IMG/VR virus record: IMGVR_UViG_3300009130_001466
Location: 32,001 to 96,000 of that record
Direction: 5' to 3' (one strand)
Source: a virus
DNA: 64,000 bases
Shown here: positions 40,481-53,417 of the stretch, in pieces
How positions within the stretch are numbered: the first letter of the stretch is position 1
How the letters are laid out: each line of letters begins with the position of its first letter
Notes under the pieces: generated by a model
Told to the model about the DNA's origin: nothing
Databases searched by the model: none
What the model saw: the letters and a program-made list of their open reading frames with translations, nothing else
Position numbers and translations under genes: made by a program

Positions 40481-42331
40481 TTAAATAAACATTGGAGTAA
40501 AACCCGAATGAGATTCTTCTGGTATATTGATCATATCGTAATAAATATTCATTCCCCAATTCCCCAAAACCAAAGCAGAGTAAGAGTCTTTTCTTGGTCT
40601 ATCTACACCCTTTTGCCTTTTAAGGTTACTTGGTAGGTCAAAGCTCTGAGTGCCTCCAGCCGAGCTAGTTACTTGGATTAAAGCGCATTCTGCTTTTGTT
40701 AAATCAATCATATCTTTCTGGTGCTCGATAAATTCAATCATTTTTGCGCCGTTATTTTTTTCGTCTTCATATTTAGAAAACTTTAATTCCTTTATTGGTA
40801 TTTTTTTAGCTTTTTGTATAGAATAATTGTCGTCCATAGCTGTTGCTGCAAAGTACAATTTCTTTCTATCGAAAGCTGTTTGTAACATTTCGTTACCATT
40901 TCTAATCCAAACCGATGTTGGTTTTCTTAAATAACAGATGGTTTTATTAGAAACATTATAGCTTCTTCTAGCTTCTTTGAGATCTTTAATGTAATCGTGA
41001 GGGTTGTCCAATCCTGCATCAAATACACCTATCTCCAGCTTGTCTCTTTTAAATAAATCACTCTCGTTGCATGAATTTATAAACTGGACACCGCCATTAT
41101 AGTCTCCCACGATCATAATAACATTAAAATGATCCATAAGATACTTAAAATAAGTCATGTGTTTCTTTAAGTTTGTCCCAGGCAGAGCATAACTATGTAC
41201 AATAACACCTTTCTTTTCTTCTGGTATTAACTTTATTAATTGTATAGCAAAATCATCAGAAGCTTCAGATTCAGACCACGATGGGTCAAAGGCTAGTATA
41301 TATTCCGAACCCTCTTCTCCAGCAACCTCAACCGCTGGAGATTCGCCATCCTCGATTGTGCATTCAGCCATCTTGCTAATCTTAAAATAACCAGCACTGT
41401 CATCGGTAAATTGAGCATTAAACTCTCTATCGATTTGAGACTGGCTCATAGTACCTCTTGCTTGAGAAATCAAATTTTCATCATATAAGGCTTTGGGCGC
41501 ACAATCATAACTAAACTGCATTATGCATCTCCTGCCTTCGTTTTTTGCTCCAGGATTAAAGACCATATTTTCGTATGCTTGATACATTTTGTATAGGTAT
41601 TCAAATTTATATGAAGCAGAAGATAAGCCAATCATTTTATTTGAAGGCCACTCTGTTCTTTCTTCTTCTGTCATTTTGCCAGCCTCAATCATGGCGTCTT
41701 CGGCGTCTTTAATTTTTTGCCTTTCCGTTGGGTTTTCAACAACGGCAAGGAACGGCATAATAACTTCGTTTAAAACCTTTTCTGGCATAAGTAGAAGCTC
41801 ATCAATAATGATTCGTTGAAAACGAAAACCACGAAGTTTTTCACCGTCACCAAGAGGTAAAGCAGTAATACGACTCTTGCCAATCTGCATAGACCATTCA
41901 TCGTTAGACTTACTTACCTTGCCTATACATTGTTTAAACAGCTCAGCTTTAGCGTCTTGCGATATATCTTCTATCTTACGGAAGATCATTTTAGACTGCC
42001 TAAATGATTTTGAAATGATCCCAATATGAACGCCTTGGTTCATCATTGCGTCCAGCAATGCGAAAATACCAGTCGAGAATGATTTCGACATACCACGAGA
42101 CCAGATGCCCAAAAAGTAATCATTCTCCATCATAGCTTTTACCGCCATGTGCTGAAACGGAAATAACTCTATACCAGTGAGCAATTCTGTCGTGAAGGTC
42201 ACATTTTCTTTGAGGAATTTATACAACCAGATTTTTGCTTGCGTATCCTCTAGATAACCCTCAAGATCCATAACTTGTTGATTGATCGGTTCTTTTTTTA
42301 AGCGTTTTTGATTCCCTATGTCCCAACTCAT
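40481..42331 (-). CDS. terL: Terminase large subunit
   Basis: LFPFQ, SRGMSKS Walker A, LRGFR..IIIDE Walker B, LAFDPS and RKDSYSAL nuclease motifs. Confidence 0.9.
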   Translation of the reverse strand: MSWDIGNQKRLKKEPINQQVMDLEGYLEDTQAKIWLYKFLKENVTFTTELLTGIELFPFQHMAVKAMMENDYFLGIWSRGMSKSFSTGIFALLDAMMNQGVHIGIISKSFRQSKMIFRKIEDISQDAKAELFKQCIGKVSKSNDEWSMQIGKSRITALPLGDGEKLRGFRFQRIIIDELLLMPEKVLNEVIMPFLAVVENPTERQKIKDAEDAMIEAGKMTEEERTEWPSNKMIGLSSASYKFEYLYKMYQAYENMVFNPGAKNEGRRCIMQFSYDCAPKALYDENLISQARGTMSQSQIDREFNAQFTDDSAGYFKISKMAECTIEDGESPAVEVAGEEGSEYILAFDPSWSESEASDDFAIQLIKLIPEEKKGVIVHSYALPGTNLKKHMTYFKYLMDHFNVIMIVGDYNGGVQFINSCNESDLFKRDKLEIGVFDAGLDNPHDYIKDLKEARRSYNVSNKTICYLRKPTSVWIRNGNEMLQTAFDRKKLYFAATAMDDNYSIQKAKKIPIKELKFSKYEDEKNNGAKMIEFIEHQKDMIDLTKAECALIQVTSSAGGTQSFDLPSNLKRQKGVDRPRKDSYSALVLGNWGMNIYYDMINIPEESHSGFTPMFI

Positions 42332-49530: not shown

Positions 49531-49640
49531 TGTAATATAACACGCAGATGCTTATAAAGACAACAGAAACGAATAATAGACCACAATCAAGTATTGGGGC
49601 TTTCGTTGTGTAGTTTTTTATAACTCTCCGAATCAACGTA

Positions 49641-49671
49641 GCCCCGACTTGTAAAAAAGTTGGGGTTTTTT
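49641..49671 (+). terminator. Intrinsic terminator
   Basis: AGCCCCGACTT/AAGTTGGGGTT plus T-run. Confidence 0.75.
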
Positions 49672-49681
49672 GTTTTTAGGG

Positions 49682-49730
49682 TTGACATTTTATTTTTTAT
49701 GTACATAGTGTTTGTTATTGATCTTTGATA
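49682..49730 (+). promoter_or_regulatory. tRNA-cluster promoter with boxA-like site
   Basis: TTGACA-16-CATAGT then GATCTTTGATA. Confidence 0.65.
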
Positions 49731-50065: not shown

Positions 50066-50124
50066 TTTTAACACACCCAGTGATCCTCTTCTTCATTGAA
50101 TGATCATAAAGGCTGGGTACATTT

Positions 50125-50321
50125 TACACAGGCGGTGTTGAAAGTAGAAACACTGCGTGGGCCAGCGTCCGAGGAAGGCGGAATATCGACTCGGTTAATT
50201 CTATGGCATTTTCGTGACCGTAACTGCAAAACGCGAAGCGCATAGAAGCATGGTGATCGATTGGTAATCGTAAGCCTAGTTCCACAAAGACCGTAATAGG
50301 AGTAACGACCTATCCTGTGTA
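50125..50321 (+). ncRNA. tRNA-like RNA with ~120-nt insert at the anticodon arm
   Basis: TACACAGG/CCTGTGTA closing stem, GGTGTT/AACACT D-like arm, ATAGG-AGTAACGA-CCTAT T-like arm. Confidence 0.55.
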
Positions 50322-50325
50322 TTAA

Positions 50326-50408: not shown

Positions 50409-50485
50409 TGGTTCGTGGTGAAGTGGCCTAACACAACTGGTTTTGATCCAGTCATTCGCAGGTTCAAATCCTGCCGAACCTACCA
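50409..50485 (+). tRNA. tRNA-Gln (TTG)
   Basis: ACTGG-TTTTGAT-CCAGT arm, CCA; 1:72 mismatch. Confidence 0.88.
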
Positions 50486-50487
50486 CC

Positions 50488-51070
50488 TTGACCCCTAATG
50501 CCTCTCATCTAAGTAGCCTTGATGATATGATGCACACTATAGGTAAAAAAAGCAGAGAACGTACCGCTCTGTCATAGGTCGTCAAATCGGTATCGTGAGG
50601 AGCAAACACGTTAACGTATCCAGCAGTGCAAGTGATGTAGGCTATTGCTCACTGCTGATCAATTTAATAGTTCTGATACTTTTCAAGAAGTATTGGGTAA
50701 TGATCCACCATTCCAAATAGGGGGAAACTAAAAAAGTAGTGTAGAACGTACTAGGATATGAGGCTTGTGGAATAGGCGTTGATTGAGCGGTATGCTGTTA
50801 GATCGATCATTTGTCATACAAGGTAACTTCTCTACGTCATCTATTGGGTTAACTATTATCAAAGTAGACCTGCCATGCCTCTGAATGACGAAATTCGGAC
50901 CTCAAGTGCCGTGAGAGTCGAAAGACTCCTATATCATTCAAGCATAATTTGGCGAAAAAGTATAAGAATCTGATCAAATCTTATATTGGTGTTTAGATTG
51001 AGTTTGTAATTTCTCTGCGACGGCGGGGGTTGATAATGAGGATAAGGACTGCGTAGCGGTCGACTCCCTC
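50488..51070 (+). ncRNA. Putative large structured ncRNA
   Basis: No ORF in track; nested long-range helices, GAGTC-GAAA-GACTC hairpin; between tRNAs. Confidence 0.6.
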
Positions 51071-51079
51071 ACACTTTTA

Positions 51080-51156
51080 GGGCCTGTAGCTTAATTGGTG
51101 AAAGCAGCGAACTCATAATTCGTTGAGTCTCGGTTCAAGTCCGAGCGGGCCCACCA
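51080..51156 (+). tRNA. tRNA with CAT anticodon (probably Ile2, possibly Met)
   Basis: GGGCCTG acceptor typical of Ile tRNAs, CTCATAA loop, CCA. Confidence 0.88.
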
Positions 51157-51162
51157 TTTTAT

Positions 51163-51234
51163 GTCGCAGTGTTTAAGGTAAACAAGTGGTCTCCAAAACC
51201 GCCAAAGGGGATTCGATTTCTCCCTGCGGCGCCA
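51163..51234 (+). tRNA. tRNA-Trp (CCA)
   Basis: GTGGT-CTCCAAA-ACCGC arm, G73, CCA. Confidence 0.82.
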
Positions 51235-51278
51235 TTTTTAGCTTGACTTTTATTTTTGGGGCAATAGTATACACACTC

Positions 51279-51869: not shown

Positions 51870-52184
51870 ATTTTAAAAAAGAACTGCAAAACTGTATTTT
51901 GTTATGCGCTAATTGCCATAAGGAAGAACATGAAAGGCTTAGGCAAAAATAGGTCTCGTATTTTTTTGGTTTTTTCTATATGTGGTTCATAGCAGGTGCG
52001 CCGATTCTACCACAAAGGTAGGGGGGTACTTGCGCGAACGTTTCGCCGTTGTTTCAAATCGTGAAAATGTGTTTGGAGATTGAGGAAACTCTCCCCCCCG
52101 CTTGTTCTGTGTTTCTCTGGACACGTTTTTTTGACAATGGGGTAGGGTGTCTGTATAAAACTTTTATTTTTTTTCTATTAGGGG

Positions 52185-52212
52185 TTGACAACCGCAATGG
52201 ATTCCACATACT
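52185..52212 (+). promoter_or_regulatory. Early sigma70-like promoter (representative of >10 copies)
   Basis: TTGACA-16-CATACT, ATG 7 nt later. Confidence 0.75.
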
Positions 52213-52219
52213 GTAAGAC

Positions 52220-52399
52220 ATGATAAGCAATAAAGAAATCGACAACGTCATTGACCACCTCACGCAAGCGAGCTACAACACTCAGCGCAAGCTGTACCCT
52301 GAGATCAAAGCTAGTCGTTGGGGCAAAGTTTACGGCGAGGGCGTAGCAAAAAAACTTGAAAGTAATTTTCAAAAACACTTGACAATCGCACAAAAATAA
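52220..52399 (+). CDS. Small hypothetical protein (59 aa), paralog of 53924-54106
   Basis: VIDHLT..SY...RKL.PEI..SRWGK.YGE. Confidence 0.7.
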   Translation: MISNKEIDNVIDHLTQASYNTQRKLYPEIKASRWGKVYGEGVAKKLESNFQKHLTIAQK

Positions 52400-52413
52400 C
52401 CATACTATAAATC

Positions 52414-52599
52414 ATGAGTAAAATTGAATCAATAATTGAAGCTGAGTGCTACGATTGGAAGCCTTCCGATATTGAATGGTCTCTGCGAAAAGAAGATGTA
52501 CCAGAAATTGCAAGAAACATTAAGAAGCTTCTCATTGAAGAGATTAAAAACTACGCAGAACATATTGACGATGCGGTTCGATTTATAGACGATTTTTAG
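52414..52599 (+). CDS. Small hypothetical protein
   Basis: Own TTGACA/CATACT promoter. Confidence 0.65.
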   Translation: MSKIESIIEAECYDWKPSDIEWSLRKEDVPEIARNIKKLLIEEIKNYAEHIDDAVRFIDDF

Positions 52600-52638
52600 G
52601 GACTCTAATATCACACAAAAATAACCATACTATATAAC

Positions 52639-52797
52639 ATGAAAACTAAGATTACATACGAAGAATACGACATGATGTGGTTTGATCTCCGCGAAGGAAA
52701 GATCAGCGAAGAAGAATGGAGAGCGTTCTGCGATGAGCTTTTCGAGCAAGAGCTTGAGCGTAACAAGGGCGTAATGATTCGCCTAAAGAATCGTTAA
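52639..52797 (+). CDS. Small hypothetical protein (52 aa)
   Basis: ATG after CATACT; MKTKITYEEYDMMWF.. Confidence 0.65.
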   Translation: MKTKITYEEYDMMWFDLREGKISEEEWRAFCDELFEQELERNKGVMIRLKNR

Positions 52798-52859
52798 AAA
52801 AAATTAAAAAAAGTTTACGATAAGCTTGACATCACCCCTTGAATCCCTATTGTATACAT

Positions 52860-53069
52860 ATGATAACAAATAAAACATACACAGTCACCACAGTCGAATT
52901 CTCTAACACAGGCGAGATGCGCGAGCAAGTGCGCGACTTCCCTAAGTCTCGTGAGGGTCTCGCCGAAGCTTACGCTTTCGCTAATCCTTGCGACGAGTGG
53001 GCGATCTGGTTCGGCGACGAGCTGGTAGACGACAGCTGCTGCACCCCTGCTCACCTAGTGGTAGCGTAA
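52860..53069 (+). CDS. Small hypothetical protein
   Basis: TTGACA-16-TATTGT, ATG 6 nt later. Confidence 0.65.
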   Translation: MITNKTYTVTTVEFSNTGEMREQVRDFPKSREGLAEAYAFANPCDEWAIWFGDELVDDSCCTPAHLVVA

Positions 53070-53081
53070 CACCGAAGCCCC

Positions 53082-53158
53082 TAAGTCGCTGACAGTCAAC
53101 GACTTACGGGGCCGAGGCCGCCCCGCGCGCGTAAGTGCTTGATACTCAACGACTTACG
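53082..53158. repeat. Double-palindrome element copy 1
   Basis: Arm centres 53094/53144. Confidence 0.95.
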
Positions 53159-53237
53159 ACACGAAAAAAACTTTAAAAAACTTAAAAAAACTTTGCGATA
53201 AGCTTGACTTGCCACTTCTTTAACCTATACTGTAAGC

Positions 53238-53417
53238 ATGATTAAATATAACGAATTGCACGACCTCTCTTGCCAATACTGGGATGCTCTTGACCGCCAA
53301 GATTATGACTGGGCTGACTTCATCGACTCATGCCTTGAGCGTGAAGGCGTGGAGCGTCTTCCTCGCGAAGATTGCGAAGAGCCCATCCTTGACCTTTCTC
53401 CTCTCGAAGTAAACTAA
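53238..53417 (+). CDS. Small acidic protein (59 aa)
   Basis: TTGACT-16-TATACT, ATG 6 nt later; D/E rich. Confidence 0.65.
   Translation: MIKYNELHDLSCQYWDALDRQDYDWADFIDSCLEREGVERLPREDCEEPILDLSPLEVN

Follow-up and report, generated by a model that had tools for sequence, protein, structure and literature searches.

Few RNAs in biology are as poorly understood as the large structured phage RNAs encoded beside tRNA islands, such as GOLLD and ROOL; according to recent cryo-EM work, both reportedly build RNA-only cages. The tRNA cluster of phage T4 encodes the stable RNAs C and D (species 1 and 2, approximately 120–140 nt each), structured non-tRNA RNAs that are co-transcribed and processed with the tRNAs, and HDV-like theta ribozymes are small conserved folds located directly beside phage tRNA genes. 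GOLLD occurs in phages near tRNA islands, with a marine example beside tRNA-Met, and combines a universally conserved 3′ region with a variable 5′ region, tRNAs being sometimes found in the linker; ROOL is a multi-pseudoknotted RNA of ~580 nt that is likewise found in phages near tRNA islands (PMC12286853).

The window analyzed here, a stretch of 64,000 nt, corresponds to bases 32001–96000 of a 112.8-kb IMG/VR virus record (CheckV completeness 83%). The source is an uncultured marine phage, the terminase of which (40481–42331) shares 25–29% identity with terminases from cultured phages; apart from this gene, PHROGs and Pfam searches with the neighboring ORFs were uninformative. A tRNA array on the plus strand runs in the order Met, Glu, Thr, Asn, a 260-nt gap, Lys, Gln, and a 594-nt stretch (50486–51079), followed by Met, a weak tRNA-like match, an ORF, and then Arg. 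The 594-nt stretch between tRNA-Gln and tRNA-Met contains no ORF of more than 44 aa, in agreement with the original prediction of an ORF-free region inside a phage tRNA operon. Judged from its consensus match, the promoter-like site at the head of the operon (Table 1) may mark the start of a transcript carrying the tRNAs together with the element, and the consensus scan detected no terminator-like sites on the plus strand within the array. Further features of the array were observed. The 260-nt gap between tRNA-Asn and tRNA-Lys (50066–50325) is a second tRNA-free, ORF-poor region without an Rfam match; a close counterpart is located 3′ of tRNA-Asn in loci L130 and L131 and a partial one in L003, and the gap probably encodes a further structured RNA module. 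Directly 3′ of tRNA-Met, positions 51163–51231 gave a weak RF00005 match (36.7 bits), where ARAGORN makes no call, and may represent a degenerate or unusual tRNA. Downstream of tRNA-Arg, the region 51870–53300 contains no ORF of 90 aa or more.

Comparison with ~90 related marine viral and metagenomic loci resolved 50486–51079 into four domains, M1, M2, M3, and M4 (Table 1), and homology detected by nhmmer with the window's element as query was mosaic and nested. Relatives were collected via neighboring proteins, via a 21-nt motif taken where conservation is highest (GGTTGATAANGAGGATAAGGA; searched in viral contigs, metagenomes, and 185,579 species genomes), and via a motif from the central part (M2), which was found on 8 viral contigs. 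The 21-nt motif was present on 30 viral contigs and in 99 metagenome stretches (80 of the 99 among the matches listed). The pattern scan of the 185,579 species genomes gave seven matches, six of which were chance occurrences in coding DNA; the sole true match was on an 11.7-kb contig of a Flavobacteriaceae metagenome-assembled genome, and the M4 model gave no match in 150 further genomes of Flavobacteriaceae. Blastn searches of cultured phages (50,697 records) with the whole element and with M4 yielded no match even at E ≤ 10, and megablast of the 11-kb neighborhood retrieved nothing but a tRNA-Lys match. An exact 30-mer scan of the viral contigs gave no match, and no divergent copies were found by running the M4 model over the loci reached through neighboring proteins.

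After removal of duplicates, 89 related contexts were left, which fell into the classes M2+M3+M4 (19 contexts), M3+M4 (16), M3b+M4 (15), M1+M2+M3+M4 (13), M4 only (13, some of which end at contig ends), M2+M4 (11), and two rarer combinations with one context each. M4 anchors this nested series, which extends from M4 alone (~76 nt) to ~600 nt, the window carrying the fullest form. As M4 served as the search anchor for most loci, the series does not establish that M3 never occurs without M4; on the eight viral contigs with the M2 motif, M4 was also present downstream of it in all cases except one ending at the contig edge. From their constant order 5′ of M4 (at loci mostly found via M4), M2 and M3 are predicted to be accessory domains. 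At the level of alignments and predicted folds, the comparison shows a widespread modular family of structured RNAs in marine phages with M4 as the conserved core.

Additional variation was seen at individual loci. Further conserved inserts of 60–260 nt are located between M2 and M3 in L090, L094, L082, L131, and L130 (A3 columns ~2360–2640), and the spacer from M4 to the next tRNA-Met measures 70–150 nt in some relatives (L090, L094, L102, L111, L146, and L135); both may represent additional modules. A 231-aa ORF with an HNH motif lies inside the tRNA/ncRNA array of L130 (1249–1944, minus strand of the locus). Its Pfam HNH score of 20.1 bits is just below the cutoff; it likely encodes a homing endonuclease, which may in part account for how modules are shuffled.

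GOLLD and ROOL are the closest analogues in kind. Like GOLLD, the present element is a large noncoding RNA of phages or prophages near tRNA islands, with a conserved 3′ core (here M4), variable 5′ domains, and tRNAs between parts (here M1 versus M2–M4); the tRNA-Met neighbor, the commonest one here, is a further parallel, and the likeness is one of layout, not of homology. Unlike GOLLD (>800 nt), the element in the window has a length of only 594 nt, shows no Rfam or M4-motif match, and belongs to a family that shrinks to a 76-nt M4-only form. Its length is near that of the 574-position ROOL model, and it shares with ROOL the occurrence in phages and at tRNA islands; however, it has no RF03087 match, and a modular nested series is not described for ROOL. 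The T4 RNAs C and D, likened here by description only, are single small molecules, whereas the present family is modular and reaches ~600 nt.

For the comparison with known RNA families, cmscan was run with all 4227 families of Rfam 15, at gathering score and then at E ≤ 10 on 2.4 kb with permissive filters. At gathering score, only tRNA matches were obtained, and 50486–51079 gave no match to any Rfam family, known ribozymes included, at E ≤ 10. Searched against the complete virus record, the ROOL model RF03087 remained without a match at E ≤ 10, a result that is weak alone since the control genomes were also without a match; the RNase P model RF00010 likewise gave none in the whole record at E ≤ 10, while control matches were obtained in 11 of 14 genomes. 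No match was found to RF01998 (group-II-D1D4-1). An RNase P-like RNA was rejected, as the short strings CCAAAUAGGGG and GAGCAAAC, which we take to be RNase P look-alikes, are within chance expectation. A tmRNA was dismissed because ARAGORN finds none and no tmRNA family appeared in cmscan, a group I or II intron because no intron family was matched at E ≤ 10 and the flanking tRNA genes are complete, and a tRNA or tRNA-like RNA because neither ARAGORN nor RF00005 gives a match inside 50486–51079. Neither the GOLLD env-38 construct nor the alignments supplementing PMC12286853 contain the M4 junction motif, and a literature search for the motif or for comparable new ornate phage RNAs retrieved nothing relevant. 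Fragments of the family may be listed among the 10,006 candidate viral RNAs that were catalogued from IMG/VR in 2023 (PMC10690425). The original prediction had left the RNA unassigned, as either a divergent member of a known family or a new class, and the absence of ROOL, GOLLD, RNase P, tmRNA, and group I/II matches bears out that caution. Because there is no Rfam match even at E ≤ 10, the new class is the better of the two options.

Table 1. Features of the tRNA array and of the element at 50486–51079 (window coordinates).
Feature	Position	Strand	Basis or remark
Terminator-like hairpin, upstream of promoter-like site	49640–49667		Consensus scan
Promoter-like site TTGACA-16-CATAGT, head of tRNA operon	49682–49709	+	Consensus scan
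tRNA-Gln(ttg), 5′ neighbor	50409–50485	+	ARAGORN; Rfam tRNA 58.6 bits
M1, self-contained fold	50486–50657	+	RNAalifold, 13 sequences
M1 helix GACC/GGUC	50490–93/50577–80		Both sides changed in L010 (GAUC/GAUC)
M1 helix CCU/AGG	50494–96/50541–43		CCA/UGG in L061
M1 helix CAUC/GAUG	50506–09/50529–32		UGAC/GUUA in L061 by manual realignment only
M1 helix GCAGAG/CUCUGU	50552–57/50567–72		
M1 helix CGUG/CACG	50594–97/50607–10		
M1 3′ hairpin CAGCAGUG/CACUGCUG	50621–28/50650–57		
M2, multi-branch fold	50665–50858	+	42 distinct sequences
M2 closing helix UAAUAGUU/AACUAUUA	50665–72/50851–58	+	
M3 (M3a + M3b)	50864–50999	+	
M3a helix GCCAUGC with GCAU and UGGC (domain 50864–50953)	50872–78 with 50942–45 and 50950–53	+	
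M3b, H-type pseudoknot	50955–50999	+	31 sequences
M3b hairpin UAUAAGA/UCUUAUA	50961–67/50979–85	+	
M3b pseudoknot helix, loop GAUC/GAUU	50972–75/50996–99	+	Directly 5′ of P1
M4, three-way junction, family-defining 3′ core	51000–51074	+	68 distinct sequences
M4 P1 GAGU/ACUC	51000–03/51063–66	+	
M4 H1	51012–51029	+	
M4 junction strand UUGAUAAUGAGGAUAAG	51030–51046	+	Near-invariant, 17 nt
M4 H2	51047–51061	+	
M4 candidate pseudoknot UGAGG/CCUCA	51037–41/51067–71	+	
U-rich tail UUUUA, 5′ leader of next tRNA here	51075–51079	+	After M4 in nearly all relatives
tRNA-Met(cat), 3′ neighbor, 5 nt past M4	51080–51156	+	ARAGORN, Rfam

The 3′ core M4 forms a three-way junction, in contrast to the four-way junction of the tRNA cloverleaf. 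In the alignment of 68 distinct sequences, 93.5% of cells were paired and both sides had changed in 10 pairs; the covariation score was reached by none of 500 shuffles, and slid partners gave 40–54% pairing. P1 follows the pattern GAGN/N′CUC, its fourth pair being U-A in 36, A-U in 18, and C-G in 14 of the 68 sequences with zero mismatches, and both the sequence and the length of H1 and H2 are free to vary, with pairing kept. Set against these variable stems are ~25 near-invariant unpaired nucleotides. The search motif included the junction strand UUGAUAANGAGGAUAAG. With most of UUGAUAANGAGGAUAAG left free in a relaxed pattern, 23 true M4 copies were recovered, of which 22 carried the exact junction strand and the remaining one differed by a single change; the near-invariance of the junction is therefore genuine. 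A possible pseudoknot joins UGAGG to CCUCA and would stack on P1. It is beyond the reach of a covariation test because the two strands are invariant, the sole variant (GUGG in L170) being uncompensated. Model R1 detected a single M4 copy in the window and in the genome (92.4 bits). One locus, L109 (308–593), was the only one seen with two M4 copies, which are ~200 nt apart, differ in H1 and H2, and flank a tRNA-Met.

Directly upstream, the hairpin and pseudoknot of M3b were 95% paired among 31 sequences, and 0 of 500 shuffles reached the covariation score. The pseudoknot helix itself was 99.2% paired, with both sides changed in three of its four pairs (AU22/GC9, CG16/UA15, and CG26/UA3), as exemplified by the variants GGUU/AACU, GACC/GGUC, and GAUC/GAUC. 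Since this covarying pseudoknot adjoins P1, M3b and M4 form one continuous fold. The M3a helix may represent the fold of its domain, as suggested by two compensated pairs in L061 (GCCGCGC...GCGUAAUUCGGC, compared with GCCAUGC...GCAUAAUUUGGC in the window).

M2 comprised 64 pairs, of which 98.8% of cells were paired among 42 distinct sequences, with both sides changed in 19 pairs. None of 500 shuffles reached its covariation score, and slid controls gave 32–46% pairing. The alignment contains ~80 invariant columns, and one loop carries an optional insert of ~40 nt. One hairpin of M2 (50830s; A2 columns 176–187) has a self-complementary tetraloop, CAUG or UAUA and in the window UAUG, with a covarying closing pair. 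This tetraloop could be a kissing contact or a plain tetraloop; the assignment as a kissing-loop palindrome was rejected, as a plain tetraloop hairpin reads equally well.

M1 was folded with RNAalifold into 36 pairs, 16 of which showed compensatory changes among 13 sequences; the CAUC/GAUG pairs of L061 score as broken in the automatic alignment. It is a separate neighboring module. In L130, L131, and L061, it is located upstream of tRNA-Asn, and at least two tRNA genes plus another conserved non-tRNA element separate it from M2–M4; an M1 motif scan of the viral contigs retrieved one contig only. An alternative module, M1′ (starting with CUUGUCCU...), replaces M1 beside M2 in L011 (6267–6365) and L009 (9358–9460) and beside M4 in L008 (9277–9400). 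M1 and M1′ are both present, at different places of the array, in L130, L131, and L061 (A3 columns ~1885–2000), where M1′ adjoins M2, as it also does in L009 and in L005, the latter on the same contig as L011. TTGACC at 50488 was rejected as a −35 box: it is the spacer, not the would-be −10 box, that is conserved, and GACC shows covariation with GGUC.

The local pairings of the original prediction reappeared within these domains: AATAGTT/AACTATT is the closing helix of M2, CAGCAGTG/CACTGCTG the 3′ hairpin of M1, and TATAAGA/TCTTATA the M3b hairpin, and all three covary. The predicted GAGTC-GAAA-GACTC hairpin (50915–28) is real as well; it hardly varies and sits in an optional insert at the tip of M3a that is absent from L146, L131, and L061. 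In the helices of M2, M3b, and M4, G-U pairs are frequent and non-standard cells very rare. Together with the tRNAs on the same strand, this identifies the folded molecule as RNA from the plus strand.

We consider it probable that 50486–51079 is a composite ncRNA locus of four independently folding domains, the released RNA of which acts in trans. From the arrangement of the operon, we infer that the tRNAs and the element would be co-transcribed in a plus-strand transcript, from which the flanking tRNAs would be excised by RNase P and the 3′ tRNA-processing enzymes. Excision would release a stable RNA consisting of M2–M3–M4, with or without M1. M3b would stack on M4 via the pseudoknot, the invariant M4 junction would serve as a functional pocket, and the released RNA would, during infection, serve in trans as a structured scaffold or binding RNA, much as GOLLD and ROOL would. 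At ~76 nt, the M4-only form falls short of the size needed for a GOLLD-like assembly.

The genomic context of M4 bears on its main rival, a cis-acting role of M4 toward the next gene, as a processing site, a 5′ stabilizer, or a put-like antiterminator that targets the polymerase during transcription, with the upstream domains as modulators. A tRNA gene follows M4 at a distance of 4–19 nt in 32 of 90 contexts (window included), representing at least nine anticodon types (Met 12, Arg 6, Lys 5, Phe 3, Asn 3, others 3), and at 21–200 nt in 17 of 90. Within 1.5 kb, a tRNA was found in 60 of 90 contexts, tRNA-Met being the commonest neighbor, and all neighboring tRNAs are on the same strand as the element; in minimal cases, M4 lies between two tRNAs at tRNA-like spacing. 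In 38 of 90 contexts, no tRNA is found within 200 nt and an ORF start is often located 10–30 nt past M4, the ORFs belonging to several unrelated families; this arrangement fits a cis-acting element no less than a trans-acting RNA. The lack of a terminator between M4 and the next gene and the conserved U-rich tail also agree with a role in cis. However, adjacency is weak evidence because phage genes are tightly packed, and a simple cis signal would not usually include an accessory domain as large and highly conserved as M2. Moreover, only two tRNA(-like) genes of the window lie between M4 and a second promoter-like site at 51243. A cis-acting role is possible, if rather unlikely.

As a tentative and somewhat doubtful alternative, M2–M3–M4 (~410 nt) would be a new class of functional phage RNA with its own activity and with the M4 junction as the active or binding site. 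Candidate roles are those of a ribozyme, an RNA that binds tRNAs or ribosomes, and an assembly made of RNA only. M4 alone would then be the minimal functional unit, behaving like a gene in tRNA arrays, to which the upstream domains would have been added stepwise as peripheral parts.

More specifically, M4 might be a new self-cleaving ribozyme that cuts the polycistronic tRNA/ncRNA transcript. This idea draws on the analogy of a small junction fold with variable stems and near-invariant unpaired nucleotides, which adjoins phage tRNAs as small ribozymes, such as the theta ribozymes, often do. It is nevertheless improbable: no known ribozyme family was matched at E ≤ 10, and by inspection the helix order is unlike those of hammerhead and HDV. 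The order P1, H1, junction, H2, P1′, and tail of M4 differs from the HDV double pseudoknot, and no HDV-family Rfam match was obtained. Furthermore, RNase P and the 3′ tRNA-processing enzymes already set the ends where tRNAs flank.

The original prediction had proposed one ~580-nt RNA clamped by three nested long-range helices. The complementary strings are present as predicted, as helix 1 (TGACCCC, 50489–95, with GGGGTTG, 51026–32; 7 pairs, 2 of them G-U), helix 2 (CTCATCTAA, 50504–12, with TTAGATTGAG, 50993–51002; 9 pairs, 1 bulge), and helix 3 (CTTGATGATAT, 50518–28, with ATATCATTCAAG, 50931–42; 11 pairs, 1 bulge). The MFE fold of the whole stretch (z-score −1.88) uses the outermost helix, which retains 6–7 of 7 pairs in all 13 full-length relatives; single-sequence folding energies were unremarkable (z −0.8 to −1.9). 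However, among 300 dinucleotide shuffles of the 594 nt (first 60 versus last 194 nt, G-U pairs and one bulge allowed), 44% gave a helix of at least 12 pairs and all 300 one of at least 9 pairs. The 13 full-length relatives showed no compensatory changes in any of the three helices. Helix 1 is uninformative because it is nearly invariant, its variants in L111 (C-A) and L061 (C-C) being uncompensated. Helix 2 drops to 6–7 of 9 pairs in L146 and L061, again uncompensated. Helix 3 requires 5 nt that are inserted in the window alone and retains 4–6 of 11 pairs in the other full-length relatives, L010 being without the 3′ strand. The 5′ strands pair locally in M1 (GACC/GGUC and CCU/AGG, both compensated), the 3′ strand of helix 1 is the 3′ strand of the covarying H1 of M4, and that of helix 2 comprises the M3b pseudoknot strand and P1; in addition, tRNA genes split M1 off in three relatives. 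Given the lack of compensation, the chance-level pairing, and the local partners, the nested-clamp model is not supported, and a single clamped RNA is very improbable. What stands of the proposal is a structured, conserved RNA region: covariation was found for the local domains M1, M2, M3b, and M4, and not for the three long-range helices.

That a highly divergent GOLLD or ROOL was missed by the Rfam models is scarcely probable, as the shared context, the conserved 3′/variable 5′ layout, and the ROOL-like length are outweighed by the missing Rfam match at E ≤ 10, the blank RF03087 search, and the absence of the M4 motif from GOLLD env-38. A DNA-level element (a recombination or homing site or a single-strand origin) would fit the mosaic distribution and the HNH-like ORF of one related array and can practically be discounted, as on the other strand the G-U pairs would become A-C mismatches, the orientation never departs from that of the tRNA genes, and multi-domain pseudoknotted folds are typical of RNA.

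The family described here, which has no Rfam model and no cultured-phage match, is a third, unrelated example of the genomic habit known from GOLLD and ROOL. Unlike these, it forms a natural deletion series, from the 76-nt core to ~600 nt, that points to the essential part and supplies small constructs for biochemistry. As the present case shows, the 'spacers' between phage tRNA genes can be occupied by several distinct genes for structured RNAs.
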